The translations under genes and the position numbers were made by a program. The notes below the pieces were generated by a model. That model had not been told where the DNA came from. It did not search any database and saw only the letters and a program-made list of their open reading frames with translations. This document shows, one piece after another, positions 2,202-37,452 of a stretch of 64,000 nt of DNA. This DNA comes from Escherichia phage dune. The first letter of the stretch is position 1. Each line of letters opens with the position of its first letter. The DNA is taken from sequence record MN850636.1. One strand, 5' to 3'.

Positions 2202-4407
2202 CTTGCAGTGCAGATTTACCTACACCAATGCGACTGTTAAGGTAGTACATGGTTTTCATACCTACTGAGTTGGCATAAATCATGTACTTCAAAGCTTGAG
2301 CCAATGATACCTTCTTAGACTTTGCATAGTCAACATAGAAATCTGAAGAGATAGCTTGACCAGTGAACTTTTGAACAATTGCATAACAATCAATCAGGTC
2401 AAAGGTGTCAATATCCCAAGCAATTTCATAGACATACTTCAACTCTTCGTAATCTGGAACAATAAACAGTACGTTACCAGTTGCAGACTTTTTAGTTAAA
2501 ATAAAGTCACGAATTGGATACAAGCCGTTTGTCGTATTAGTTGCCAGTGAAGAACTCTCATTAGGCATGTAAGCTTCTAATACAGAGTTACGGATTCCAC
2601 CATTTTCTTTAATACGTTGTGCTAAGTCATCCCAATCATAACGAAGTTTTGCATCATGCTTCTCATCAATCTTCCTGTTAGCTGTCTTTGGAGGAACCCA
2701 ACCTTCAGGATATTTAGTGAACTGCATATACTCAGGCACACCACGTTCTTTAGCAAGTCTTAAAGAAGCTTCGTGTAAGTAGTAAGAGTGCATTTCAGCA
2801 AGCTCATGAAGCTTCGTCTTACCTGCTCTTGAAGAGTAGTTCACGTAGTTTTTCGCAAGGTAATGAGCCACATTTGTAAGGCCAATCCCAACAGAACGAC
2901 GCTTCTGAACATGGTTACGCATCGACGGATACGGATAATCCATAAGGTCAATAACGGAGTCAACCATTGCAAGAGCATAATAAGCAACGTCAGCGTATTC
3001 ATCTTCTGAAATTCTCCCTGCAACCAAACTAGCTAGGAAGCAAAGAGCTACCTCACCATCCTCTTTCACAGCGTCATCTCTGTAAAGGTCTGTCTCTTTC
3101 TCAAAGCCATACACTGGCAACACAATTTCCATACAAAGATTTGACATCTTCAAAGGTTCTTTAAATGGTGTATGTGTGTTTGCATTATTTGTGAAGAATG
3201 GATACACACGGCCTGTTGCATAACGCTGCTGGATAAACAGTTTAGCAATTTCACGAGCCTTCACACGTCTGTGCTTGACACCTGAATGCACTGCATGACC
3301 AACTGCCATAGCAAACTCATCAGCAGATGCTGTGTAGAACATGTCATAGAGTTTTGGTGCATCTTTGTAAGAGAATAACAACCAATCTGTATCATACTGA
3401 ACACACTGCCAGAAATAATCGTTTGTGCCGAATGAGTAGTCCATCTCGTTAATACGTTTAGAAGGAACCGTTGTAGGGTGCTTCAAACGCAGTAAATCTT
3501 CAATCTGCGGGTCTAGAGCAGTGTAGAAGTTATTAGCTGAACCACCACGACTCTTCTGTTTGTTTGCCTCTACAGATGAACGTACAAGCTTGTAATAAGG
3601 TAGCTTACCCATGTGCTCAATAGTATTTTGACGGATACCATCACCAATAGTGCGAGTCTCCATCAGCATACCAATACCAGCTTGCTTTGTGGTCATATCA
3701 TAAGCAACCTTTGCAGCAATACCGAGAGACTCAGCAGTATCATTTGCCTTAATCAAACAGCATGACGCATAACCTGATTTAGTTGCTCTTAAACCATTTA
3801 AATAAGGCGTAGGAGCGTTAATCTTCAGGTCGGATAGGTAAGTGTACAGTTTGATAACATCTTGCAGTCTACGGTGCTTTGGTTGCTTCTCAAAGGCTTT
3901 CATAGCCATACCCATAAACATAAATTGTGGTGACTCAAACAGTCTTCCCGTTTTAATATCACGGATGCCGTACTTGTCTCTGAACTGTTTCAAGACTGCA
4001 TAACCGTAAGAGATATCTTTTGAGTGCACGATGTAACCTTGCAGGTATTCAAGCTCTTCCTGTGAATAATCCATCTTCTCCCAAAGTCCTGCTCTCTCCA
4101 TATTTTTAACGAAGGTAATCAGCGTAGGAACCTTAGTAAAGCCTCCAAAGGCTTCTTTGTAGATAATCCCTAGAAGTAGCCGTCCAGCCATATCTGAGTA
4201 CTCTTGAGTTTGTTTATCAACACAAACATCAATCATGGCTTGGTGCATCTCTTTTGTGGTGCATCCTTCATAAACACGTTTCATAGCTTCCATAGTGACT
4301 TCTGACCAGATAATTCCACGTTTATCTGCCCATGATGCCCACTTATTCAGTCTTTCTGGGTCAAAGCTTACTACTGTACCATTTGATTTTTTAATTGTCT
4401 TAATCAT
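2173..4407 (-). CDS. nrdA: Ribonucleotide reductase class I large (alpha) subunit
   Basis: 744 aa; N-terminal ATP-cone (TVVSFDPERLNKW), active-site NxCxE motif (SNLCMEIVLP), C-terminal Cys pair (CEGCGV). Confidence 0.92.
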   Translation of the reverse strand: MIKTIKKSNGTVVSFDPERLNKWASWADKRGIIWSEVTMEAMKRVYEGCTTKEMHQAMIDVCVDKQTQEYSDMAGRLLLGIIYKEAFGGFTKVPTLITFVKNMERAGLWEKMDYSQEELEYLQGYIVHSKDISYGYAVLKQFRDKYGIRDIKTGRLFESPQFMFMGMAMKAFEKQPKHRRLQDVIKLYTYLSDLKINAPTPYLNGLRATKSGYASCCLIKANDTAESLGIAAKVAYDMTTKQAGIGMLMETRTIGDGIRQNTIEHMGKLPYYKLVRSSVEANKQKSRGGSANNFYTALDPQIEDLLRLKHPTTVPSKRINEMDYSFGTNDYFWQCVQYDTDWLLFSYKDAPKLYDMFYTASADEFAMAVGHAVHSGVKHRRVKAREIAKLFIQQRYATGRVYPFFTNNANTHTPFKEPLKMSNLCMEIVLPVYGFEKETDLYRDDAVKEDGEVALCFLASLVAGRISEDEYADVAYYALAMVDSVIDLMDYPYPSMRNHVQKRRSVGIGLTNVAHYLAKNYVNYSSRAGKTKLHELAEMHSYYLHEASLRLAKERGVPEYMQFTKYPEGWVPPKTANRKIDEKHDAKLRYDWDDLAQRIKENGGIRNSVLEAYMPNESSSLATNTTNGLYPIRDFILTKKSATGNVLFIVPDYEELKYVYEIAWDIDTFDLIDCYAIVQKFTGQAISSDFYVDYAKSKKVSLAQALKYMIYANSVGMKTMYYLNSRIGVGKSALQDAYCEGCGV

Positions 4408-4425
4408 TTTCGAATCCTACAGATG

Positions 4426-4447
4426 AAAAGAGCCTCCGAAGAGGCTC
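4426..4447 (-). terminator. Rho-independent terminator (GAGCCTC-TTCG-GAGGCTC + U-run on minus strand)
   Basis: 7-bp perfect stem, tetraloop, A-run on plus strand upstream. Confidence 0.55.
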
Positions 4448-4453
4448 CGTAGT

Positions 4454-4786
4454 TTAAATCTTGAAAATTTGCTCATTCTGCCACATATCGTAAAACTTAT
4501 CACTTACCTTTGTGACTGAAGATGTGTGCATACAATTGACGAACCATGATATATTATTGCTCATAATAATTTCAAGCTGTTTTGTGACATCAAAATTCAT
4601 GTCTTCAACAACATAATTACCTCGCATCTTGCAAACAATTCTTCCAAACAAGATTGCACTTCTGCCTCTTCGGTCATCACAGTACATAACTGTGTCCCCG
4701 TGCTTAACATCTTGTCCGATACTATCAACACCTAATTTAGCACCTGAGATAATGTCATCATAAGATAGCTTTTTTGCTTTAGACAC
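4454..4786 (-). CDS. Hypothetical protein (110 aa)
   Basis: ORF track; tight spacing in minus-strand operon. Confidence 0.5.
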   Translation of the reverse strand: MSKAKKLSYDDIISGAKLGVDSIGQDVKHGDTVMYCDDRRGRSAILFGRIVCKMRGNYVVEDMNFDVTKQLEIIMSNNISWFVNCMHTSSVTKVSDKFYDMWQNEQIFKI

Positions 4787-5111
4787 GGTATTTCTCCAAG
4801 TTTCTTTTTAGATACAACCAACCATAGTCAGTCCTTTCTACACCCATAAAGAGTGGAGCCATCACAACTTTACCGAAAGTATTCCTGTGTTGGCAGATTT
4901 CAAAGGAATACTCTTTCTCAATATCAATCCCGTATTTGTACAGGACTGCTTTTAAAACTTGTTCATTGTCCAGAAGTGTATCTGGAGTCTCACCATATTT
5001 TTCTAGTAACGGGTCATTCATAAACACCGTCATAGAAATATTGTAGTTTGAGAAGTGGCTCTTCTGAGCCACACCCTCTTTATTAATGTTCTGTGAATCC
5101 ATTATAACCAA
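4779..5111 (-). CDS. Hypothetical protein (110 aa)
   Basis: ORF track; overlaps neighbours by few nt. Confidence 0.5.
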   Translation of the reverse strand: MVIMDSQNINKEGVAQKSHFSNYNISMTVFMNDPLLEKYGETPDTLLDNEQVLKAVLYKYGIDIEKEYSFEICQHRNTFGKVVMAPLFMGVERTDYGWLYLKRNLEKYRV

Positions 5112-5838
5112 CCCCTTTTAACCAGCACTTCAGGTTATTAGCATCATAATTCAGTTTCGGGTATGAGGTTACATGGAACTGCTCACCATCATAATAGACA
5201 ATATCTGCAATCCATAGTCCATTCTCTTTACAGAAGTCTTTATCTGCTTTAGAGGTAATTGGATTAACTTCTACAAAACCATCTACACCCAAATCCTTTA
5301 AGCTACCTACAATACCTTTGCAGATAACGCATGTCTCAGATACTACCACAAAAAGTTCTTGGCTTTCAAGCTCTACAATGTATTCACCAAGCTGTACTTT
5401 AGGGAGATTTGATTGCTTCATAATCTTCCCATCGGCTGCACGAACAATCGCATACCACTCTTTACCATCAACTACTGACATTCTGATAATACACTCTTGA
5501 CCAGTACGCTTTTCAATGTCTGCAAGACGTTTTAAAGCTTCTTCATAGTTATCTGTGTACTTCAGGTCATTATTATGGCAAACAGCTTTCATAGCACCGT
5601 TATGGTCATGTTGTGACAGATAAATCAAGCCGTCAAGAACATATTGTAAATCTGCCTGAGCATCCAGTGTCTCAATGGGGTCTTTCTCTTCAATTGCTTT
5701 TACAAGCTCTTTTGCTTCTTCAAGCATACACAGAGATTGAGATTTTAAAGATTCCCAATACTCATCACTGTAAGGTTGCTTTTGAGTGTTTCCACAACGA
5801 AGGTTCCAGTTTTTTACTGATTCTCTTGAGTTAAACAT
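5083..5838 (-). CDS. Hypothetical protein (251 aa)
   Basis: ORF track. Confidence 0.5.
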   Translation of the reverse strand: MFNSRESVKNWNLRCGNTQKQPYSDEYWESLKSQSLCMLEEAKELVKAIEEKDPIETLDAQADLQYVLDGLIYLSQHDHNGAMKAVCHNNDLKYTDNYEEALKRLADIEKRTGQECIIRMSVVDGKEWYAIVRAADGKIMKQSNLPKVQLGEYIVELESQELFVVVSETCVICKGIVGSLKDLGVDGFVEVNPITSKADKDFCKENGLWIADIVYYDGEQFHVTSYPKLNYDANNLKCWLKGVGYNGFTEH

Positions 5839-6077
5839 TCGGACTCCTTAAAATATTTGTTAACCTTTAGCTCTCGTGTTTCAATATACTCTAGATGCTC
5901 ACGTAGCTCTTGACGTTTAAGCATTAGGTGCTGCATTTGAGATTCAACAGCTTCAACTTCTTTAATTATTGACTCTCTAGCATTTGCAAGAACGCGCTCA
6001 AGTTCTTCAATCTTGCTGTCAACTTTTGCTACATGACTCACAGCTTTACTTTTGTTAAACATTTTATTCTCTCTCAA
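5814..6077 (-). CDS. Hypothetical coiled-coil protein (87 aa)
   Basis: ORF track; charged heptad-like sequence. Confidence 0.45.
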   Translation of the reverse strand: MRENKMFNKSKAVSHVAKVDSKIEELERVLANARESIIKEVEAVESQMQHLMLKRQELREHLEYIETRELKVNKYFKESECLTQENQ

Positions 6078-6083
6078 TAGTTA

Positions 6084-6584
6084 TCAAGCACAATTTGCTT
6101 TCATGACCTTATGGATTCTTTTTTCAGCATCTTCATAAGTTTCTTTAGTAATAAACTTAATTGCTGCAATATTGGCATTGTAGAAGAGTCTGAGCTTCGA
6201 GTCAATCCTTTTTGTCATTACATCGAACTTATGTTGAAGGTTTGCTTCACCATAAACTAGACCACCTTTTGTGTAGTAGGTTTGGATAATGTAAAAATCA
6301 AAAGATTCCTTTCCAAAGCTCTCAATATCTTTTTTAATATACTCAGAAGAAGTCTCGTAAGTCATCCAATCACTTTCCTTAGTAACTACCTTCTTCCGAG
6401 TCTTCCCAGCAACTTTTCTTTTGGTCACACTGTTAAGCTGTTTCTTACCCAAATAGTACTGTCCAGTCTTTTTGCAGTACACTAGGTAGACAAAACCAAA
6501 GTGCTTTGCTGGGTCAACTTCACCACATAGTGAAACCCAATGTCCATATTCAGGACAATTGCCAAAACCTTTTATTTTTCTCAT
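6084..6584 (-). CDS. Putative GIY-YIG-like homing endonuclease (weak)
   Basis: Motif FVYLVYCKKTGQYYLGKK resembles GIY-(10)-YIG; basic tail; located in a cluster with an HNH endonuclease. Confidence 0.35.
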   Translation of the reverse strand: MRKIKGFGNCPEYGHWVSLCGEVDPAKHFGFVYLVYCKKTGQYYLGKKQLNSVTKRKVAGKTRKKVVTKESDWMTYETSSEYIKKDIESFGKESFDFYIIQTYYTKGGLVYGEANLQHKFDVMTKRIDSKLRLFYNANIAAIKFITKETYEDAEKRIHKVMKANCA

Positions 6585-7081
6585 TCATAAGCTTCTCCGT
6601 GATTTGTAAACTCTTTATGGAGTTCTTCTCTTTTCTTTTTGACAACTAATTCAGCCTCAGCGATAGAGTCAAATAAACCTAGATGATAGCAAACTTTATT
6701 ATGCTTGACTTGTGCAGCCCATCTACCTCTTTGCTTATGGTAATATACACCCTTCACACCAGATTTATTATCTCTTCTTTTGGCTGCATTACAGTTATTA
6801 TCTGACCTGCTACACTCTCTCAAATTGTCGAACCAGTTGTCGTGCCTGATACCATTCTTATGGTCAACAAATTTTGGTAGGTATCCTTTCATATACAAGA
6901 ATGCCAGTCTGTGTGCTGCATATCTTTTCCCGAAGAGTTTTATGTAGATATAACCACTATGATGTTTAAGACCCGCTACTGAGCCAGCTTTGGCCTTACC
7001 TTTTCTATTAACTAACCAAGTAAAGACCCCTGTTTCGGGGTCATAGTGCAGGTATTCTTTAAGAGTTTGTTGGGTTAACAT
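6581..7081 (-). CDS. HNH homing endonuclease with C-terminal AP2-like DNA-binding domain
   Basis: HYDPETGVFTW N-motif, AHRLAFLY...VDHKNG...DN..NLRE (HNH_3-like), SGVKGVYYHKQRGRWAAQV (AP2-like); ORF track start 7105, ATG at 7081 more likely. Confidence 0.8.
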   Translation of the reverse strand: MLTQQTLKEYLHYDPETGVFTWLVNRKGKAKAGSVAGLKHHSGYIYIKLFGKRYAAHRLAFLYMKGYLPKFVDHKNGIRHDNWFDNLRECSRSDNNCNAAKRRDNKSGVKGVYYHKQRGRWAAQVKHNKVCYHLGLFDSIAEAELVVKKKREELHKEFTNHGEAYE

Positions 7082-8105
7082 TTGGTGTCCATCCATACTT
7101 ATCAAAAGTGAAATCGTCTTTCTTATTTCTTTCCTGATAAGCTAAGAAAAAGTGTTGCTGCATTAACTCTAAAGGTGTTCTGGTAATTGTTTGACCATCC
7201 CACGAGACATAAGTGTATGACTCTTTCTTAGCATAAAGCTCATAAATTGCATCAAGACACTCTTTGTAAGTGGTTTTACCTTCAAGGGCTTTCATTATAG
7301 TAACCTTACCAACACCCTTTAAACCGAAATAATTATCCGCATTATCACCAGCCACGGCTTGATAGCAAAGAAATTTAAAACCTACCCCAACTGTCTTCTT
7401 AGCTTTGGGTGTCGATTTTATTGGGCAATCCCAAATTTCACCAACGTTGTTATCAGCAATGAAAATCAAAGGTGACTTTTCATAGGTCATATCAATGCAG
7501 TAAGTCCCTTCAGCTTGGCGAAGGTCTTTATCAATACTCATCAAGGCAGCCTTTTTACCCATCTTTTCAGCTTTAGCAATAACGATAGAGTCAGCTTCGA
7601 ATCCATCAAGAATTAGCTTGAACTCTGGCCTTGACAGAAGATACTCGCGACAAGCAACTAAGTGTGTTGGTGTGACAGCATCTTTACGGTTACCTTGATA
7701 TTGGTGCTCAAGACCTTTAATGTCTTTATGTTTATGCACACCTTTCTCTGTTAAATAACCTACCCAAGTTCTTTCTTTACCAACAACCTTAAGCCATTCC
7801 TGAAGCACCTGTTGAGTAGCCATGATAGCTTCTTTTTCACTCTTAGCTTCTTTCCAAGTCTGTCTTTCCCATTCATCTTCATCAAATGTCAGGCCAAGCT
7901 CTTCCACAAGGATTCTCTGGTCTGCTAACCATCTTGCAGCATCTTTCGCATTATCAAACGAATCAGATTCTTCTGCTGTGAGTTTATTGACATATTTATA
8001 TTTTGCTTTCTCAACTACACAAGCACCTTTATAGGCAATACTGTCAGAGTCAATAAAAACATGTGTAACTGAATCGGGAAGTTTTGTTAATGTGTACTTC
8101 TCCAT
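7059..8105 (-). CDS. 5'-3' exonuclease / flap endonuclease (T7 gp6-like, RNase H-like)
   Basis: FEN-family acidic motifs: ILDGFEADSIV, SIDKDLRQ, AGDNADNYFGLKGVGK matching the gp6 pattern from memory. Confidence 0.7.
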   Translation of the reverse strand: MEKYTLTKLPDSVTHVFIDSDSIAYKGACVVEKAKYKYVNKLTAEESDSFDNAKDAARWLADQRILVEELGLTFDEDEWERQTWKEAKSEKEAIMATQQVLQEWLKVVGKERTWVGYLTEKGVHKHKDIKGLEHQYQGNRKDAVTPTHLVACREYLLSRPEFKLILDGFEADSIVIAKAEKMGKKAALMSIDKDLRQAEGTYCIDMTYEKSPLIFIADNNVGEIWDCPIKSTPKAKKTVGVGFKFLCYQAVAGDNADNYFGLKGVGKVTIMKALEGKTTYKECLDAIYELYAKKESYTYVSWDGQTITRTPLELMQQHFFLAYQERNKKDDFTFDKYGWTPNVNPTNS

Positions 8106-8121
8106 TATGGCTCTCCATATG

Positions 8122-8148
8122 AAAAAGCCCCATACTAAGTACAGGGCT
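8122..8148 (-). terminator. Putative rho-independent terminator downstream of SSB gene
   Basis: AGCCC/GGGCT stem with U-run on minus strand. Confidence 0.4.
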
Positions 8149-8167
8149 TTAAAGTAACTTTTAGAGA

Positions 8168-9025
8168 TTAGTCTTCTGTGTCGAAGTCTTCATCTTCTTC
8201 GTCATCTGGGTCTGGCAAATCTTCATCATCACCATCATCAGAAGTATTCGAAGATTTATGGTCTGTTGCGTCTTCTTCAGTGATTTCACCGTTATCTTCA
8301 ACACCATCAAGACCAAGCATAGCCAGTTCATCTTCATCCAGTTCAGGTTCACCATTAGCACCGTTACCACCAGTGTAAGGTACAAGGGTATCAATGATAA
8401 ACTGTTCCTGAATAGGTTTTGTCAGAACATTGTTCTCAAAAGTGTAGAAGTGAGTAGAAAGAATCACACTACCAAAAGAACCGTTACCAACTGCGATATC
8501 TGGATGAATTACATCATAGTTCTTGTCATCTTCATGTTTATCAGATGCTTGAGCTTTGATTTTCTTCATCGGCTGCTTAACAGCTACACGCTTACCATTT
8601 ACTTCTTCAATCAGCATTACAGGGAATGACTGTTTAGCTGTCCATACAGCACCATCTTTATAAGCTGCTGCACGACTTACTTTCAAGATGTAGTAAGTGT
8701 CTGCTTCAAAAGGTGGTTTACAACCAAACTTCTCTTCGAAGTCATCTGCATCAACTGCTTCAGTAGTAACTTTGTCCCAGCCTTCTGGGTTTTTCTTAGA
8801 CTTAGTAAACTCTTTAAACAGCTTGTTACCATCTTCTGCCAGAATTGACACACTGTAGTTACAGTCTTTGCCTGGGAATTTCTTATCAATAGACTTACCT
8901 TTCCCCGGACGTGGTGAAGTATTCAGGTAATAAAACCAGACATCTTTCAGCAGGTAACGCAGAGTTTGACGTTCAGTACCGTTGTATTTCTCTACCGGAG
9001 CTTTCATTTTAACAACTTTAGACAT
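8168..9025 (-). CDS. Putative ssDNA-binding protein with highly acidic C-terminal tail
   Basis: 285 aa; C-terminal 40 aa almost entirely D/E ending DEDFDTED; position between exonuclease and primase-helicase as in T7-like replication modules. Confidence 0.45.
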   Translation of the reverse strand: MSKVVKMKAPVEKYNGTERQTLRYLLKDVWFYYLNTSPRPGKGKSIDKKFPGKDCNYSVSILAEDGNKLFKEFTKSKKNPEGWDKVTTEAVDADDFEEKFGCKPPFEADTYYILKVSRAAAYKDGAVWTAKQSFPVMLIEEVNGKRVAVKQPMKKIKAQASDKHEDDKNYDVIHPDIAVGNGSFGSVILSTHFYTFENNVLTKPIQEQFIIDTLVPYTGGNGANGEPELDEDELAMLGLDGVEDNGEITEEDATDHKSSNTSDDGDDEDLPDPDDEEDEDFDTED

Positions 9026-9098
9026 TATTTAAACCTCTATCTCAATTTATGAAGAGTACCAATTCTAATTTGTTGATACTCTATTGTCAAATACTAAT

Positions 9099-23497: not shown

Positions 23498-23758
23498 ATG
23501 AAAATTGAACACTGCTATGAGTCTGATGGAACACCTATCCGATGTCCACATTGTGGGTGTACAGACTTACAAGGTGAAGTAAGTGAAATAGTCAACGGTC
23601 ATATTGCTGAAGAAAGTACCCGATGCACAGGGTGTAATGAAATTATCGCTTTCTGGGCTTATGGTTCATACCAACCCTCTCCACATTTTATCTACCATCG
23701 TAGTAAAGTTGTGAAGAGTGTCATCAACTGGTTCATTAAGAGAGGGTTTACAAAATGA
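23498..23758 (+). CDS. Putative zinc-ribbon protein (86 aa)
   Basis: CPHCGC ... CTGCNE. Confidence 0.45.
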   Translation: MKIEHCYESDGTPIRCPHCGCTDLQGEVSEIVNGHIAEESTRCTGCNEIIAFWAYGSYQPSPHFIYHRSKVVKSVINWFIKRGFTK

Positions 23759-24300
23759 TTAAGCTAATATTTGCAAGTGGTGAAAACGGTGAATTTGGTA
23801 CTCCAACTGGTATGCCGTGGCCTCGACATAAACAGGACATGCAAGAGTTTAAGAGACTCACTAAAAATAACTTAGTAGTCATGGGTAATGAGACTTTTAA
23901 GACTCTGGGTAGTAAACCTTTACCAGAACGTGCAAACCTCATCTTAACAAATTCTGTACCATACTTAGGCATAGACTTTGGCAAAGATGATGTAATGTAT
24001 GCTAAAGCCAGTAAAGAGTCATTTGGAGCATTTTTGAAGTATCTTGATAGCTCTATTGATGAAGATGTCTTTGTAATTGGTGGTGCAGGTATCCTTGTCA
24101 ATGCTTTACCGTATGCTAGTGTGGTGTTCCATACTGTTTTCCATAAAGTTACTGAAGAGGCCACTGTGCATTTACCTTTTGAAAACTTCTTTGAGAAGCT
24201 GTATGATAACCGTGTGTTTACAAAGGTACAGTCAAAACCATCAGAGGATGGTAAAGCAACTTTTGAAATTTATGTTCCACAAGTAAAAGGACACTTTTGA
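23755..24300 (+). CDS. frd: Dihydrofolate reductase
   Basis: IFASGENGEFGTPTGMPWP ... VVMGNETFKTL matches the DHFR N-terminal signature; directly upstream of the thymidylate synthase homolog. Confidence 0.78.
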   Translation: MIKLIFASGENGEFGTPTGMPWPRHKQDMQEFKRLTKNNLVVMGNETFKTLGSKPLPERANLILTNSVPYLGIDFGKDDVMYAKASKESFGAFLKYLDSSIDEDVFVIGGAGILVNALPYASVVFHTVFHKVTEEATVHLPFENFFEKLYDNRVFTKVQSKPSEDGKATFEIYVPQVKGHF

Positions 24301-24301
24301 T

Positions 24302-25201
24302 ATGTCACAAGCAGATACAAGTTACAAAAATATCCTGAACCATGTTTTATCAGTCGGTGAACTGCGTACTACACGAACTGGAGATGTTATCTCTGCATTT
24401 GCTCCACCTAAGTTTCGTTTTGATATGCGAACTGGTTTCCCGCTCTTAACATCTAAACAGGTGTTTACACGGCAAGTTATTGGGGAAGCTTTATGGTTCC
24501 TGAATGGCGAGAATAAACTTGGTGAACTCCGTTACCGTACTTGGGGTGAAAATGATGGAGAACGCTGGACTATCTGGTCAGATGATTTTAAACGCTGGTT
24601 AAGTTCTAACTATTCTTCTGAACAAGACTGGTTAGAAGATGCAGGCGGGAGAATCTACGGGGTTCAGTGGAGAAACTTTGAAGGTCATAACGGTTGTGTT
24701 GTAGACCAGCTAGAGACCTTAGTAACGAAGATGAAGGGTGATATCACAGACCGTTACATGCTTGTGAATGCTTGGAATGCAGCAGATATTGCAGCAAACT
24801 CAATGGCTCTAGCACCTTGCCATGTTCTGTTTCAGATTTATATTACTAACGAGGGTGAAGTTGACTTACAGTGGTATCAGCGTTCAGTAGACACCTTTTT
24901 AGGACTTCCGTTTAATATTGCATCTTATGGTTTTATTCTGGAAGTTCTTTGTAAGATGACTGGATACACTCCACGGTACTTGATAGGTGTCTTTGGAGAT
25001 ACTCAGATTTATCAGAATCATATGAAGCAGGTTTATGAACTGATGAACAATGAAGAGTTCCATGCACCAACTTTTGAGATTGGTCTACAACTTAATACTT
25101 TAAGTGACCTGAAACATCTTACTGCAAGTGACTTTATCGGTGGAATTAGTAACTACCAACATGCAGGAAAGATTGAAGCACCTTTGTCAGTAGGTAAGTA
25201 G
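24302..25201 (+). CDS. Thymidylate synthase family protein (ThyA/Td; hydroxymethylase alternative not excluded)
   Basis: Catalytic-Cys region LAPCHVLFQIY and YQRSVDTFLGLPFNIASYGF match the ThyA signature from memory. Confidence 0.8.
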   Translation: MSQADTSYKNILNHVLSVGELRTTRTGDVISAFAPPKFRFDMRTGFPLLTSKQVFTRQVIGEALWFLNGENKLGELRYRTWGENDGERWTIWSDDFKRWLSSNYSSEQDWLEDAGGRIYGVQWRNFEGHNGCVVDQLETLVTKMKGDITDRYMLVNAWNAADIAANSMALAPCHVLFQIYITNEGEVDLQWYQRSVDTFLGLPFNIASYGFILEVLCKMTGYTPRYLIGVFGDTQIYQNHMKQVYELMNNEEFHAPTFEIGLQLNTLSDLKHLTASDFIGGISNYQHAGKIEAPLSVGK

Positions 25202-25204
25202 AAA

Positions 25205-25245
25205 CAAAAAAGGCTCCCGTAAAAAGGAGCCTTAAAATTTTATTT
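25205..25245. terminator. Bidirectional rho-independent terminator (GGCTCC-loop-GGAGCC flanked by A-run and T-run)
   Basis: Between convergent genes thyA-like (+) and 25240-25611 (-). Confidence 0.55.
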
Positions 25246-25611
25246 TTCAGTATTCTTTGTGTTCTTTTCAGTAATAGCTTGGAGGGCTGATACTGATTGA
25301 GCCAGATTGTTAACACTATCAGAGAATTTATCAAGAGTCTTAGTAAGCTTTGCATTCTCTCCCTTAACATTCTCTAACTGGACTTTCTGGTTCTCCATCC
25401 CTAGCTGAAGCAGCCTCATATCAGACTGTAAATCACGAATAGCTGAATAATTACTTTTGGAATAATTATCTAGCTGCTGTAACTTTGTTGTAATAGACAC
25501 TTCTTGCTTACCATCCGAGACTTGCATGGTGGTATACATCCCAATAACACTAAAAATACCAACTACAATTGCACCAATATTGTTTTTAAAAGCTTCCTCT
25601 AGCCACTTCAT
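25240..25611 (-). CDS. Membrane-anchored coiled-coil protein (123 aa); possible tail-associated or lysis-associated protein
   Basis: N-terminal TM helix IGAIVVGIFSVIGMY followed by heptad-rich region. Confidence 0.45.
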   Translation of the reverse strand: MKWLEEAFKNNIGAIVVGIFSVIGMYTTMQVSDGKQEVSITTKLQQLDNYSKSNYSAIRDLQSDMRLLQLGMENQKVQLENVKGENAKLTKTLDKFSDSVNNLAQSVSALQAITEKNTKNTEK

Positions 25612-25805
25612 TTATTCTCCCCCTTAAAAGCTTTTTCTAAGTTATCTACGAACTCATCATCAATAGGTGTGTCTGTTTTACTCGCAAGATATCTTGCAAG
25701 CTTAAAGAACACTTTCTCAATCATGTATTCACTTAGAAGGGATAAAATGAGTTTCCAGAAGAAGCTACCTAGATTTTTTAGAAGAATTGCTAGGATTGTA
25801 GGCAT
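25608..25805 (-). CDS. Small hypothetical protein (65 aa)
   Basis: ORF track; hydrophobic N-terminus. Confidence 0.4.
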   Translation of the reverse strand: MPTILAILLKNLGSFFWKLILSLLSEYMIEKVFFKLARYLASKTDTPIDDEFVDNLEKAFKGENK

Positions 25806-25884: not shown

Positions 25885-28236
25885 TTAAGCAGTTCTTACC
25901 CAAGCCATTAACTTGTAGAACTGGTTAGTAACACTAAATGCTGAACCAGAACCTGTACCACCAGTGTTACCACTAACTGTATGGCTGTGAGCACCAATAC
26001 CAACACTGTGAGCATGGTTACCAGCAGAAGCAGCAGTACCACTTACAGAGTGGGTGTGGTCACCACCCCCATCAGTGTAACCCGGACCTGTACCGATTCT
26101 ACCACCACCACCACCAGAATAGTGTGTAGAGTTCTGACCAATCCACGAGATAGCGTGGTTGTGGTGACCAGCAGATGAAGTAGAGCCACTTACAGAGTGA
26201 GTGTGAGCACCAGTCGTGTTAGTGTTTTTTGTTCCGTAGTCAAAAGATGAAGTGGTAGCAGAAAAACTGTGAGTGTGTGAAGGCAAGTTCCCAACAGCTA
26301 ACGTCACAGAGTCTGAACCACCAGTTGTAGCAACATCTGAACCATTTGCTGCTGCAATTCTGATAGTTCTACCAACACCATTGTTAAGGTACGTCCAAGT
26401 TAGACCAGGCAGTGCTGTATTAGGGTTAACATTACTGTTAAACCACGTTACAATACCTACTGGGTAGATTTTATTAAGGTCTGTAGAGTCACTTACTGCC
26501 TGTGCAATCTTCTGGTCAGTTTCTGCTTTAGTGTATGCACCAAGCTCTGAAGGGGTTGGCTTCTGTGCTTCTGTGTAAATCTTAGACCACTTAGCTTCAA
26601 AGCCTTTACTATCTACAGATGTTCTGTACCACATCCCACCGTTCTTATACTGGAACTTTAATTGCGCACAGGCAGTAGAAGAGTTAACCCCCTGATACAT
26701 TTGAAACACAAGTGCTGTGTAATCAGCATTTGTTGAGGTTACATTATATAAGCCTGTTTTAGCGTTCCATGCCACACCATCTGCATTCTGCTCTGTAGCT
26801 TGTCCTGTAGAACCTGCAACCATGAATCTCTGATTAGCTGCTGACTGAGTGAAGTATCTAGCATCTAAGTTAGACCAATCAGAAGGTTTTACCTGTCCAG
26901 TAATCTGTAGAGATTTAGACAGAAGAACTTCGTCAGCTAAATCGAGTCTTGCACCAGTCAAGTAGTTATGGAATGATGCCGTACCAGAACCATTAGTACC
27001 ACAACCGATAAACCACTTATTTGTGTTATCAGTATTCTTACCAACAATGTAAGAAGAATTATTCTGAGCCTTGCTGTAGATTCTTAATGCTTCACCATCA
27101 GATTGAATATTCTGCTGTAAAGTGAATGTGTTAGCTTCATTCTTCTTAGCAAGATTTGCGTATGAACCGATAAGAACATAACGAGAGTCAATGTTAGTCC
27201 AATCAGAAGGTTGAACTTGACCAGTTACAGTTAGTGTTTTATTGATATTAACACTTGTTCCTACAGTAATCTTGCCACTAGTTTTGTAGTTTTCTAGAGC
27301 TACGTTATCACCTTCGTTACTATTACCAATGTACCATCTTTTGACACCTGCGCTATCAATCGCTTTAATGTACAATGGTTGTGCAGCATTGGCATTCTGT
27401 AGCCTAATTGCTTCACCATCTTTTTTGAAAACACTCAGTTTGTTGAATGTGTTAGAGCCACTAAAAGTATTATCCGCAGCTAGCTGCGCAAACCTCTGAT
27501 TAGCAACTGTCTGAGTGAAGTATCTAGCATCTAAGTTAGACCAATCAGATGGTTGAACTTGACCAGTGATTTGAAAAGTTCTGTTGACTGACACCAAATT
27601 TTCAAGAATACCAATTGAAACACCAGTCTTTACATTCGACAATACAAGAGCATTTGAGTCTCTGTTATCATTGCCAAAATACCATCTACTAGTTCCATCT
27701 GCATCTCGACCACGAATACCTAGTGGCATACCCTGTGTGTTATTCTTAACAATAAGTGCTTCATTATCAGATAGGATGGTTTGAGTACCTCTAAAGGTGT
27801 TATTTACAGCCAGTCTTGCATATCTTGCATCATTCTCTTCATTAGTTCTCATCCCAAGTTCATTAGGACTTGGCTTATTCAGGGTATGATAAACGGTTGC
27901 AGACCTTGAAGCATCTGCAATAGTTAGTCTAAGGCCGTTTGCGTTGATTTTAAAAGTCTTTAAAACATCCCCCATAGTAATCTCAGAAGAACCTGTAGGG
28001 TCAAATACTGCCTTACCACCATAAAGTAGCTTGACAATTCCTAAGTCACCCGTCATAGTGCTACCAGCAATCTGAACAAATCTTTCTAGTTTAAAAGATG
28101 CTAAGAAGTCTTGATAGGTCATTCGACGGTCTTCATCACCCAGCATTTCAGGTCTCTTTTTAACCCTGACATGAAGAAGGTCGTCTGAACGAATTGTATC
28201 AATTGAGTTTAATTCACTCAACTTGTAATCTGCCAT
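25885..28236 (-). CDS. Long tail fiber protein with three internal ~110-aa repeats and His-rich HxH C-terminal tip
   Basis: 783 aa; repeated QITGQVQPSDWSNLDARYFTQ module x3; C-terminus HTHSVSG...HNHAIS...HSHTVSG; ends ...AWVRTA like neighbouring fiber. Confidence 0.75.
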   Translation of the reverse strand: MADYKLSELNSIDTIRSDDLLHVRVKKRPEMLGDEDRRMTYQDFLASFKLERFVQIAGSTMTGDLGIVKLLYGGKAVFDPTGSSEITMGDVLKTFKINANGLRLTIADASRSATVYHTLNKPSPNELGMRTNEENDARYARLAVNNTFRGTQTILSDNEALIVKNNTQGMPLGIRGRDADGTSRWYFGNDNRDSNALVLSNVKTGVSIGILENLVSVNRTFQITGQVQPSDWSNLDARYFTQTVANQRFAQLAADNTFSGSNTFNKLSVFKKDGEAIRLQNANAAQPLYIKAIDSAGVKRWYIGNSNEGDNVALENYKTSGKITVGTSVNINKTLTVTGQVQPSDWTNIDSRYVLIGSYANLAKKNEANTFTLQQNIQSDGEALRIYSKAQNNSSYIVGKNTDNTNKWFIGCGTNGSGTASFHNYLTGARLDLADEVLLSKSLQITGQVKPSDWSNLDARYFTQSAANQRFMVAGSTGQATEQNADGVAWNAKTGLYNVTSTNADYTALVFQMYQGVNSSTACAQLKFQYKNGGMWYRTSVDSKGFEAKWSKIYTEAQKPTPSELGAYTKAETDQKIAQAVSDSTDLNKIYPVGIVTWFNSNVNPNTALPGLTWTYLNNGVGRTIRIAAANGSDVATTGGSDSVTLAVGNLPSHTHSFSATTSSFDYGTKNTNTTGAHTHSVSGSTSSAGHHNHAISWIGQNSTHYSGGGGGRIGTGPGYTDGGGDHTHSVSGTAASAGNHAHSVGIGAHSHTVSGNTGGTGSGSAFSVTNQFYKLMAWVRTA

Positions 28237-28282
28237 TATAAATTTTCCTCTTAAAAGGGGCTATACAGCCCCTGTAAAGAAA

Positions 28283-29431
28283 TTAAGCTGTTCTCTGCCA
28301 TACATACAATACGAAGGATGGCTGTTCAACACTAAATGCTTGACCAGAACCAGTTGTGCCAGTTGTGCCAGAGTGCGAATGCTCACCTGCTCCGGTTACT
28401 GTCACTGTTGCTGAGTGGTTGTGGGAACCAATTGCAACAGAATGGCTGTGAGCACCAATCCCAACTGTGTGATTATGCGCACCAATTGCTACAGAGTGAG
28501 TGTGGTTATTAGCTGTTGTCAGTGTAGCTCTTGGGTCATAGCTTGCCCCCTCAACCGATAAACCTCTCCAACCACCATCAGCATAACCACGATTAATGAA
28601 TGTTGTTTGTGTTAAACCAGCGGCACTGGTTGTTCTGTTACCATAGTCGTAAGTAGATACAGTTTTGGTTCCATAGTCAAATGTTGTAGTCCCTTTAGTA
28701 CCATAGTCAAAAGCACTGATAGATGCCGTTGCACCATGAGTGTGACCACCACCAGTGACATACACTGAGTGAGTATGTGCAGGAATGTTGTTAACTGTCA
28801 GTGCAGTAGTCTGCGAACCAAACGTTGAACCAACTGGCCTAGAAGCACTATCATAACCTACAAGTGCTCTTCCTTTTGAAACTAACTCCCAAGTACCTCC
28901 ACAAATTAAATATGTAGAAGGGTTTGCAGGATTCATAGAGAGATGGATAGTACCTACTGGATAAGAAGCCTGAACAGCCTTGTACAAGTTATTTACTGCT
29001 CTTGCTGTAGCATACTTATCTGCATCCTCATTATAAAGGTTAGATGTCACCCAGTTCTGAACATTACTTAACCCAACCTGTGCCTTAGTGGTGTTGTGTG
29101 GGTTGCTCTTATCATCAATATGTTGTTGAATAAGATTATTAACCTCTTCTGAAGACATAATCTGTAGATTTGCTCTTGCCTCAGCTACATTAACAATGTC
29201 TGATAAGTTATTTTCAGCAACTAACTGTAGAGCATTAATAACGTTATCTAAACCAATTTGTGTCTTAGTAACACCATGAGGATTATTTCTTAGGCTTGAG
29301 TGTGGGGCAAGTAATTGCTCAAGAGTACATCTCTTATCCTCGATACCCTGTTTAAGATGGAAGATATCACTAAGGTCAATTGGTAAGGCTGCTTGAGGCA
29401 AGGCACTAATTTGAATTTCACCTACTGCCAT
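28283..29431 (-). CDS. Tail fiber protein with phage-fiber repeats and His-rich HxH C-terminal region
   Basis: 382 aa; NPHGVTKTQIGLDNV / NPHNTTKAQVGLSNV repeats; HTHSVAIGAHNHTVGIGAHSHSVAIGSHNHS; ends ...VWQRTA. Confidence 0.75.
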   Translation of the reverse strand: MAVGEIQISALPQAALPIDLSDIFHLKQGIEDKRCTLEQLLAPHSSLRNNPHGVTKTQIGLDNVINALQLVAENNLSDIVNVAEARANLQIMSSEEVNNLIQQHIDDKSNPHNTTKAQVGLSNVQNWVTSNLYNEDADKYATARAVNNLYKAVQASYPVGTIHLSMNPANPSTYLICGGTWELVSKGRALVGYDSASRPVGSTFGSQTTALTVNNIPAHTHSVYVTGGGHTHGATASISAFDYGTKGTTTFDYGTKTVSTYDYGNRTTSAAGLTQTTFINRGYADGGWRGLSVEGASYDPRATLTTANNHTHSVAIGAHNHTVGIGAHSHSVAIGSHNHSATVTVTGAGEHSHSGTTGTTGSGQAFSVEQPSFVLYVWQRTA

Positions 29432-29433
29432 TA

Positions 29434-37452
<8,019 letters not shown>

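Follow-up and report, generated by a model that had tools for sequence, protein, structure and literature searches.

By its sequence, the 3.5-kb region at positions 25885-29431 of a 64,000-nucleotide (nt) stretch of Escherichia phage dune (record MN850636.1; the whole stretch is called the window) encodes both baseplate fibres of a Felix-O1-like phage of ordinary type, a Felixounavirus (Ounavirinae). They are a 783-amino-acid (aa) long tail fibre (LTF; open reading frame (ORF) 25885-28236) and a 382-aa short tail fibre (STF; ORF 28283-29431), both on the minus strand, as are all fibre features given below. Very probably both fibres end in T4 gp37-type tips with His-x-His (HxH) motifs, and the LTF has a shaft of modules that are shuffled among relatives. 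What the sequences show directly is the identity of the genes, their homologies, the anatomy of the repeats and the mosaicism at population level.

HxH tips and repeated shaft domains have already been published for the near-identical phage Bas63 (PMC12609058). New here are two properties of the LTF shaft. Its module number is fixed at three across 120 close relatives, with four and five modules in distant uncultured relatives, and its modules fall into 10-13 allele classes each, which are shuffled with breakpoints in the inter-module linkers, some types occurring at both positions 1 and 3.

Fibre genes and their needle tips

Across its full length, the 3.5-kb region shares 95% nucleotide identity with Escherichia phage vB_EcoM_LNA1, and it matches 242 phage records, nearly all from Felixounavirus. 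Its gene order is that of Bas63 (JohannRWettstein) gp17-gp31. The two ORFs lie where an earlier note, made from the sequence alone, had placed two tail-fibre genes. The STF is 98.2% identical to Bas63 gp26 and matches PHROG 2097 (tail fibre; E = 1e-127); the LTF is 69.3% identical to gp27 and matches PHROG 4277 over its full length. Adjacency, flanking genes and full-length similarity to gp26 and gp27 identify the two as the Felixounavirus STF/LTF pair.

Both fibres end in dense HxH tips, as the note had described. The STF contains seven motifs (residues 219, 230, 310, 319, 328, 337 and 351) and the LTF six (654, 678, 692, 727, 741 and 750), whereas composition-preserving shuffles predict about 1.0 and about 0.35 per protein, respectively, and in 20,000 shuffles of each whole protein the observed count was never reached. 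No more than two motifs occur in any other reading frame of 100 aa or longer in the window. The similarity of the C-termini (...VWQRTA in the STF and ...AWVRTA in the LTF) was likewise borne out, and the tips are paralogous: STF residues 157-382 and LTF residues 591-783 align over 230 aa with 32% identity (E = 6.6e-16). The C-terminus of T4 gp37 has a similar hydrophobic-x-x-R-x-A ending.

Both tips match the T4 gp37 tip structure 2XGF, with E-values of 3e-14 (STF) and 2.7e-13 (LTF) for single sequences and of 5.3e-25 and 2.9e-21 for family profiles. Five of the six LTF motifs align with T4 HxH motifs. In each fibre, both halves of the tip align to 2XGF around a variable insert, with HxH motifs on the outgoing and the returning strands, and a gp10/gp12/gp37-type collar precedes the needle, recognised by Pfam in the STF and by paralogy in the LTF. 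It is exceedingly improbable that the motifs are a chance or low-complexity trait of a Gly/Ser/Thr/His-rich tail. Although HMMER does flag compositional bias, shuffles of the tip segment alone, which keep its composition, attain the number of motifs seen in no more than 1e-4 of trials (1e-4 for the LTF, 0 for the STF), and the spacing of the motifs is regular and conserved across genera. Together, the shuffles and the 2XGF family-profile matches effectively refute a chance origin.

In the STF, residues 1-140 (29012-29431), delimited by motif scan and alignment, comprise the predicted N-terminal baseplate-binding region and shaft. In this part the unit 'NPH..TK.Q.GL.NV.N' occurs twice, at aa 50 and 110; the part itself is 85-98% conserved in most Felixounavirus-type relatives. 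The copy number of the STF shaft unit does vary: the relatives P0169 and P0170 (453 and 460 aa) carry an extra unit of ~60 aa and so have three copies.

The STF collar (aa ~141-216; 28784-29011) is of the gp10/gp37-collar type. Pfam Gp10_C matches residues 154-260 with 65.2 bits (cut-off 27), and the gp10 structures 2FKK and 5HX2 in the PDB match as well. Pfam PF07484 (phage tail collar) gave no match at E <= 0.1 in the STF or the LTF, the related Gp10_C matching instead, and turns up only in distant STF homologues.

The needle and head of the STF (aa 217-382; 28286-28783), as aligned to 2XGF, hold two ascending and five descending HxH motifs, FDYGTK repeats and the VWQRTA end. Four of the descending-strand motifs make up a 9-aa tandem repeat, HxHxVxIGx (aa 310-345; 28397-28504), in which the peptide HTHSVAIGAHNHTVGIGAHSHSVAIGSHNHS begins at residue 310; at the DNA level it is seen as a 27-nt repeat (TRF: period 27, 3.4 copies, 28413-28504). 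Between the two halves of the needle lies the head (aa ~273-305; 28517-28615), with hypervariable, putative receptor-contact loops. Among relatives with 85-98% identity in their N-terminal regions, head residues 273-305 are essentially unalignable, at 0-18% identity.

The LTF tip is built in the same order. The collar (aa ~586-650; 26287-26481) is paralogous to that of the STF and forms a single conserved class with 97-98% identity among relatives, and the needle and head (aa 651-783; 25888-26286), aligned to 2XGF, carry three ascending and three descending HxH motifs around a head at ~696-724.

The STF and the LTF would presumably be homotrimers. From the collar, each chain would run out along the needle to a small head and fold back, with the HxH motifs of the outgoing and returning strands pointing into the needle core. 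The homology to T4 gp37 suggests that a trio of HxH motifs, with one from each chain, may coordinate one metal ion, and the STF could hold up to seven such sites and the LTF up to six. Homology with the iron-binding tip in 2XGF is the ground on which metal binding is proposed. The head loops at the far end would contact the receptor, probably lipopolysaccharide (LPS); for phages of the Bas63 type the receptor is LPS-core dependent. A 2026 receptor-prediction preprint places Felixounavirus among the clades known to recognise LPS or O-polysaccharide and assigns no receptor to the genus.

The ladders might instead bind Zn, Ni or no metal rather than iron, in the last case serving only for packing or as a hydrogen-bond ladder. 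The number of motifs among STF relatives, from 6 to 11, and the presence of non-His motifs in some of them ('GNLSMSG', Erwinia-phage type) fit this alternative; single sites therefore seem dispensable. It is nevertheless improbable, because the motifs align position for position with the iron-binding motifs of 2XGF and the histidines are the most conserved residues of an otherwise variable needle. In the short fibres of Ounavirinae, STF histidines 219/221, 230/232 and 337/339 do not vary, and all six LTF motifs are invariant among the relatives aligned. Among the 120 best LTF matches to the window (68-97% identity), which serve as the relatives in all LTF comparisons below, 119 have six motifs and the AWVRTA end. 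In addition, the spike protein of the same phage type has a conserved HxH that likely coordinates iron according to the Bas63 authors (PMC12609058).

Several points weigh against the reading of two baseplate fibres with gp37-type tips and shuffled shaft modules. The LTF collar reaches only 23.4 bits with Gp10_C, under the cut-off of 27, and the bias flagged by HMMER is high in the 2XGF matches themselves, although the profile E-values are still strong. AF2 monomer models have a mean pLDDT of 59 (STF) and 52 (LTF) and are unreliable in the tips (below 55; LTF tip below 40); Foldseek of the STF model gave only weak, non-significant matches to gp10 (E 0.07). The reversal of the chain, described for Bas63 and implied for the dune tips by the alignment of both halves to 2XGF, is not visible in these low-confidence models. 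The density of the Bas63 fibres was too poor for side-chain modelling, so that metal sites were not seen there and were deduced from T4 (PMC12609058); metal and trimer in the dune fibres would likewise be carried over from homologues. Finally, allele frequencies and linkage among the 120 relatives are biased, since these are the best matches to the window.

A third HxH protein of the tail module is encoded by a 207-aa ORF (32484-33107, minus strand). Its single HTH motif, at H188/H190, coincides in position with the HxH in the puncturing-apparatus (spike) protein of the Bas63 baseplate.

Shaft modules of the long fibre

The LTF begins with a predicted baseplate-binding region and a first beta domain (aa 1-130; 27847-28236), which form one conserved class: across the 120 relatives, residues 1-140 average 91-99% identity and belong to a single allele class. 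Three related modules and a further domain, D4, follow. Module 1 (M1; aa 131-239; 27520-27846), module 2 (M2; aa 240-353; 27178-27519) and module 3 (M3; aa 354-461; 26854-27177) were delimited by Pfam and by a hidden Markov model (HMM) built from the modules themselves. Pfam PF20744 (gp37_trimer) matches three stretches of the LTF with 199.7 bits in all (cut-off 21.7; E 6e-60), and module 3 also matches T7 gp17 by sequence (4A0T/4A0U, chain residues 45-113).

D4 (aa 462-585; 26482-26853) resembles Pfam gp37_C and the tail fibre protein S of phage Mu. PF12604 (gp37_C) matches residues 481-585 with 67 bits (cut-off 22.5), and the Mu S structure 8JU3 is matched by the single sequence (E 3.6e-17), the family profile (1.3e-22) and Foldseek (6.8e-8). 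The AF2 monomer models are confident only for the STF collar and for four beta-rich domains in the LTF. In Foldseek searches the LTF model matched the T4 gp34 rod domains (5NXF/4UXG; E ~1e-7 over ~420 columns) and, locally, T7 gp17 (4A0T, at 1.5-3 Å). The LTF shaft is made up of three related beta modules of ~110 aa and a Mu-S/gp37_C-like domain, with conserved linkers between them.

The earlier note had recognised three modules of ~110 aa as ~335-bp DNA repeats, and the repeats are indeed spaced 324 and 342 nt apart. The modules are 35-44% identical in pairs by motif-anchored alignment and HMM, both of which recovered them; a self-BLASTP of the LTF did not list internal repeats. An origin of the modules by recent tandem duplication was rejected at this low identity. 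The inter-module linkers are conserved and read ITGQVQPSDWSNLDARYFTQxxANQRF.

The note further proposed that the modules mediate recombinational variation of host range. In its strict form this means that the three tandem modules promote recombination, unequal or within the gene, which makes fibre length vary among relatives and alters host range. The comparison of repeat number among related phages that the note suggested speaks against this form. All 120 relatives have exactly three modules, in proteins of 753-796 aa, and repeat number was also constant across the 18 felixounaviruses compared in the Bas63 study, in which tips and beta-helix domains vary (PMC12609058).

Different numbers were met only further away. 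A search with the module profile against 1.84 billion representative proteins retrieved two orthologous fibres, one of 1015 aa with five modules (45% identity) and one of 901 aa with four. Both are encoded by syntenic loci on uncultured Ounavirinae-like contigs, the first at 6001-9048 of a 77-kb Logan contig (SRR22802239) and the second at 4001-6706 of an 87-kb contig from ENA (ERZ28599557). No sequenced phage in the phage collection is closer to these fibres than 44-49% identity. These orthologues are in favour of variation by module number, as are the in-frame direct DNA repeats in the linkers (see below) and the report that gp37 duplications can widen the host range of T4 (Tetart 1996, cited in PMC3157838). 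However, the extra modules are only 24-59% identical to neighbouring modules and are therefore not recent duplications. Variation by module number is thus quite unlikely: within the genus the LTF has a constant number of modules, and four or five appear only at deep divergence.

One of the relatives, P0106, is a full-length, 779-aa Felixounavirus LTF (70% identity) on an 88-kb contig that carries the NCBI label 'tail fiber protein [Methanobrevibacter gottschalkii]'. The label almost certainly reflects a phage contig contaminating an archaeal assembly.

Cassette exchange at the linkers

What varies within the genus is the type of module. Each module of the 120 relatives is either ~96-100% or ~30-48% identical to that of the window, a bimodal split in which the two states combine independently from module to module. 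M1 falls into 10 allele classes, M2 into 12, and M3 and D4 into 13 each; there are 8 head classes and one class each for the N-terminus and the collar. Together with the window, the 121 sequences contain 70 distinct M1-M2-M3-D4 combinations, and for many pairs all four combinations are present.

Breakpoints located by two-state segmentation fall in the conserved linkers (aa 141-150, 221-230, 251-270, 331-340, 351-360, 441-450 and 541-550), and further ones at the HxH boxes beside the head (aa 681-690 and 721-730). The HxH-box DNA CACTCTGTAAGTGG is repeated at LTF aa 680 and 729 and flanks the head at these breakpoints. The same pattern appears at the DNA level, where an identity of at least 97% flips to 40-60% across single modules: M1 and M2 in phage warpig, M2 and M3 in ESCO49, and D4 only in JK55. 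The linkers keep islands of 80-90% nt identity.

Recombination therefore acts within the genus through cassette exchange at the linkers, not through change of copy number. Of the variation by recombination foreseen in the earlier note, the exchange at conserved linkers stands, and a change in the number of repeats does not. The end pieces of the fibre (N-terminus, collar and C-terminus) are fixed across the genus, while modules, D4 and heads exist as many deeply divergent alleles, which are probably reassorted by homologous recombination inside the conserved linkers and the HxH-box sequences.

Modules may also move between positions. Linkers 1 and 3 of the dune LTF contain a 39-nt exact in-frame direct repeat, at approximately 27522-27560 and 26856-26894 (LTF aa 230-242 and 452-464), 666 nt apart and encoding SDWSNLDARYFTQ. 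A crossover between the two copies would delete two modules. The exact run shared by linkers 1 and 2 is 17 nt. In five other Felixounavirus genes checked, the run corresponding to the 39-nt repeat is shorter, at 19-23 nt, and the greater length in dune suggests a recent gene conversion. In other phages some position-3 modules reach 80% identity to those at position 1; this likeness, together with the 39-nt run, points to exchange or conversion between positions.

The adaptive value of the shuffling, including any effect on host range, is presumed rather than observed. The shaft modules could instead be inert spacers, with specificity arising from the head loops alone and the diversity and shuffling of modules being neutral mosaicism or hitch-hiking with the tip. 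This is a tenable explanation, though somewhat short of an even chance. Homologous rod domains of T4 gp34 are structural, receptor contact being made at the gp37 head, and fibre length and linkers are strictly conserved. Module classes are also partly linked to head classes (M2 with head, M3 with head), as lineage structure predicts.

Other evidence is less easily reconciled with spacers. Modules at 30-48% identity sit between flanks of the same gene at 95% identity or more, so that drift alone is hard to accept; the pattern resembles that of receptor-binding regions. Allele classes are more numerous in the modules (10-13) than in the head (8). The LTF variants of a Felixounavirus that rose to 100% in a Salmonella challenge experiment were at aa 497 and 534 (PMC6669636). 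By dune numbering these residues fall in D4, not in the tip, which is a weak hint that domains other than the tip matter.

A more far-reaching proposal is that the shaft modules and D4 are exchangeable ligand-binding cassettes, making for example lateral contacts with glycans or LPS, or controlling fibre retraction on the sheath. The repeated linker DNA would then act as built-in recombination joints, giving combinatorial fibres from 10-13 alleles at four positions, with types moving between positions 1 and 3. The proposal is unlikely.

Comparison with known fibres

The closest described system is Bas63, for which a cryo-electron microscopy study (Sci Adv 2025) described an STF (gp26) of 430 Å and an LTF (gp27) of 630 Å; with AF3 models, a collar, needle and head with 7 and 6(+1) di-histidine motifs were assigned, and the LTF was described as five beta-helix domains with helical turns between them, likened to T4 gp34 (PMC12609058). 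Besides sharing the gene order, the dune STF has the same seven HxH positions, with the numbering shifted by one residue, and the dune LTF has the same architecture, including the six motifs and an extra His beside the head-proximal motif. The dune LTF differs in being only 69% identical, with modules 1-3 and D4 of other allele classes (40-60% nt identity). The PhageMaP essentiality paper on Bas63 contains nothing on fibres.

The tip of T4 gp37 consists of a collar, an iron-stapled needle and a head (2XGF; Bartual et al. 2010), and its homology with the dune tips takes in the collar, the two halves of the needle and the segment with FDYGTK. The HxH counts are seven in the STF (2+5), six in the LTF (3+3) and seven in T4 (3+4, as read from the alignment). 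The metal of gp37 is iron in T4; in dune, iron would be expected from sequence homology. Whereas the T4 tip ends a jointed fibre of four proteins, the dune tips sit on short, single-gene baseplate fibres, and both dune fibre types carry a gp37-type tip. Identity to the solved structures of T4 gp34, T7 gp17 and Mu S (5NXF, 4UXG, 4A0T and 8JU3) is only 12-25%. Unlike in T4, T7 and Mu, three modules, D4 and a gp37-type tip are arranged in one 783-aa chain in Ounavirinae.

In T-even phages, crossovers inside conserved motifs yield chimeric fibres, according to Trojet et al. 2011 (PMC3157838) and the work cited there (Tetart et al. 1996, 1998). The dune-type LTF is similar in that its variable segments are bounded by short conserved crossover motifs. 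It differs in that the shuffled units are mostly whole shaft modules, not the adhesin tip, and in that the mosaicism is known from sequences alone.

A fixed copy number combined with shuffling is a modest extension of this known principle, and the value of the analysis lies mainly in the correct annotation of the region. The extension could aid the engineering of Felix-O1-like phages, which serve in diagnostics and biocontrol of Salmonella and E. coli, or the prediction of their host range. It matters only if shaft modules are shown to affect adsorption.

Neighbouring genes

The structural genes adjoining the fibres (window 30000-54000) are ~97% identical at the nucleotide level to many Felixounavirus genomes, and the neighbouring genes overall encode proteins 98-100% identical to those of Bas63. 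The fibre genes lie downstream of two baseplate wedge genes, 30596-32065 (489 aa) and 29736-30593 (285 aa), the orthologues of gp23 and gp24 (99-99.6% identity). Next to the STF is a 100-aa ORF (29434-29736, minus strand), the orthologue of gp25 (98% identity), which forms the platform of the LTF on the baseplate (function per PMC12609058).

Downstream of the fibres come two small membrane-protein ORFs and then a convergent pair of genes for thymidylate synthase (thyA) and dihydrofolate reductase (DHFR). In T4 the gp37 tip depends on dedicated chaperones, gp38 and gp57A. No gene for a gp38-like chaperone or adhesin was evident beside the dune fibres, the two downstream ORFs of 65 and 123 aa having been examined. 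These two ORFs (25608-25805 and 25240-25611, minus strand) lie directly downstream of the LTF and have N-terminal hydrophobic helices. They match Bas63 gp28 and gp29 at 98-100% identity, and PHROGs lists them as of unknown function; the 123-aa ORF is labelled 'holin' in phage warpig, and the 65-aa ORF matches PF26925 (Phage_PM2_Gpl) in relatives. The DHFR (181 aa) and thymidylate synthase (299 aa) genes occupy 23755-25201 on the opposite, plus strand and converge on the fibre and lysis-like genes. GC skew changes where the coding strand switches, near 25.2 kb.

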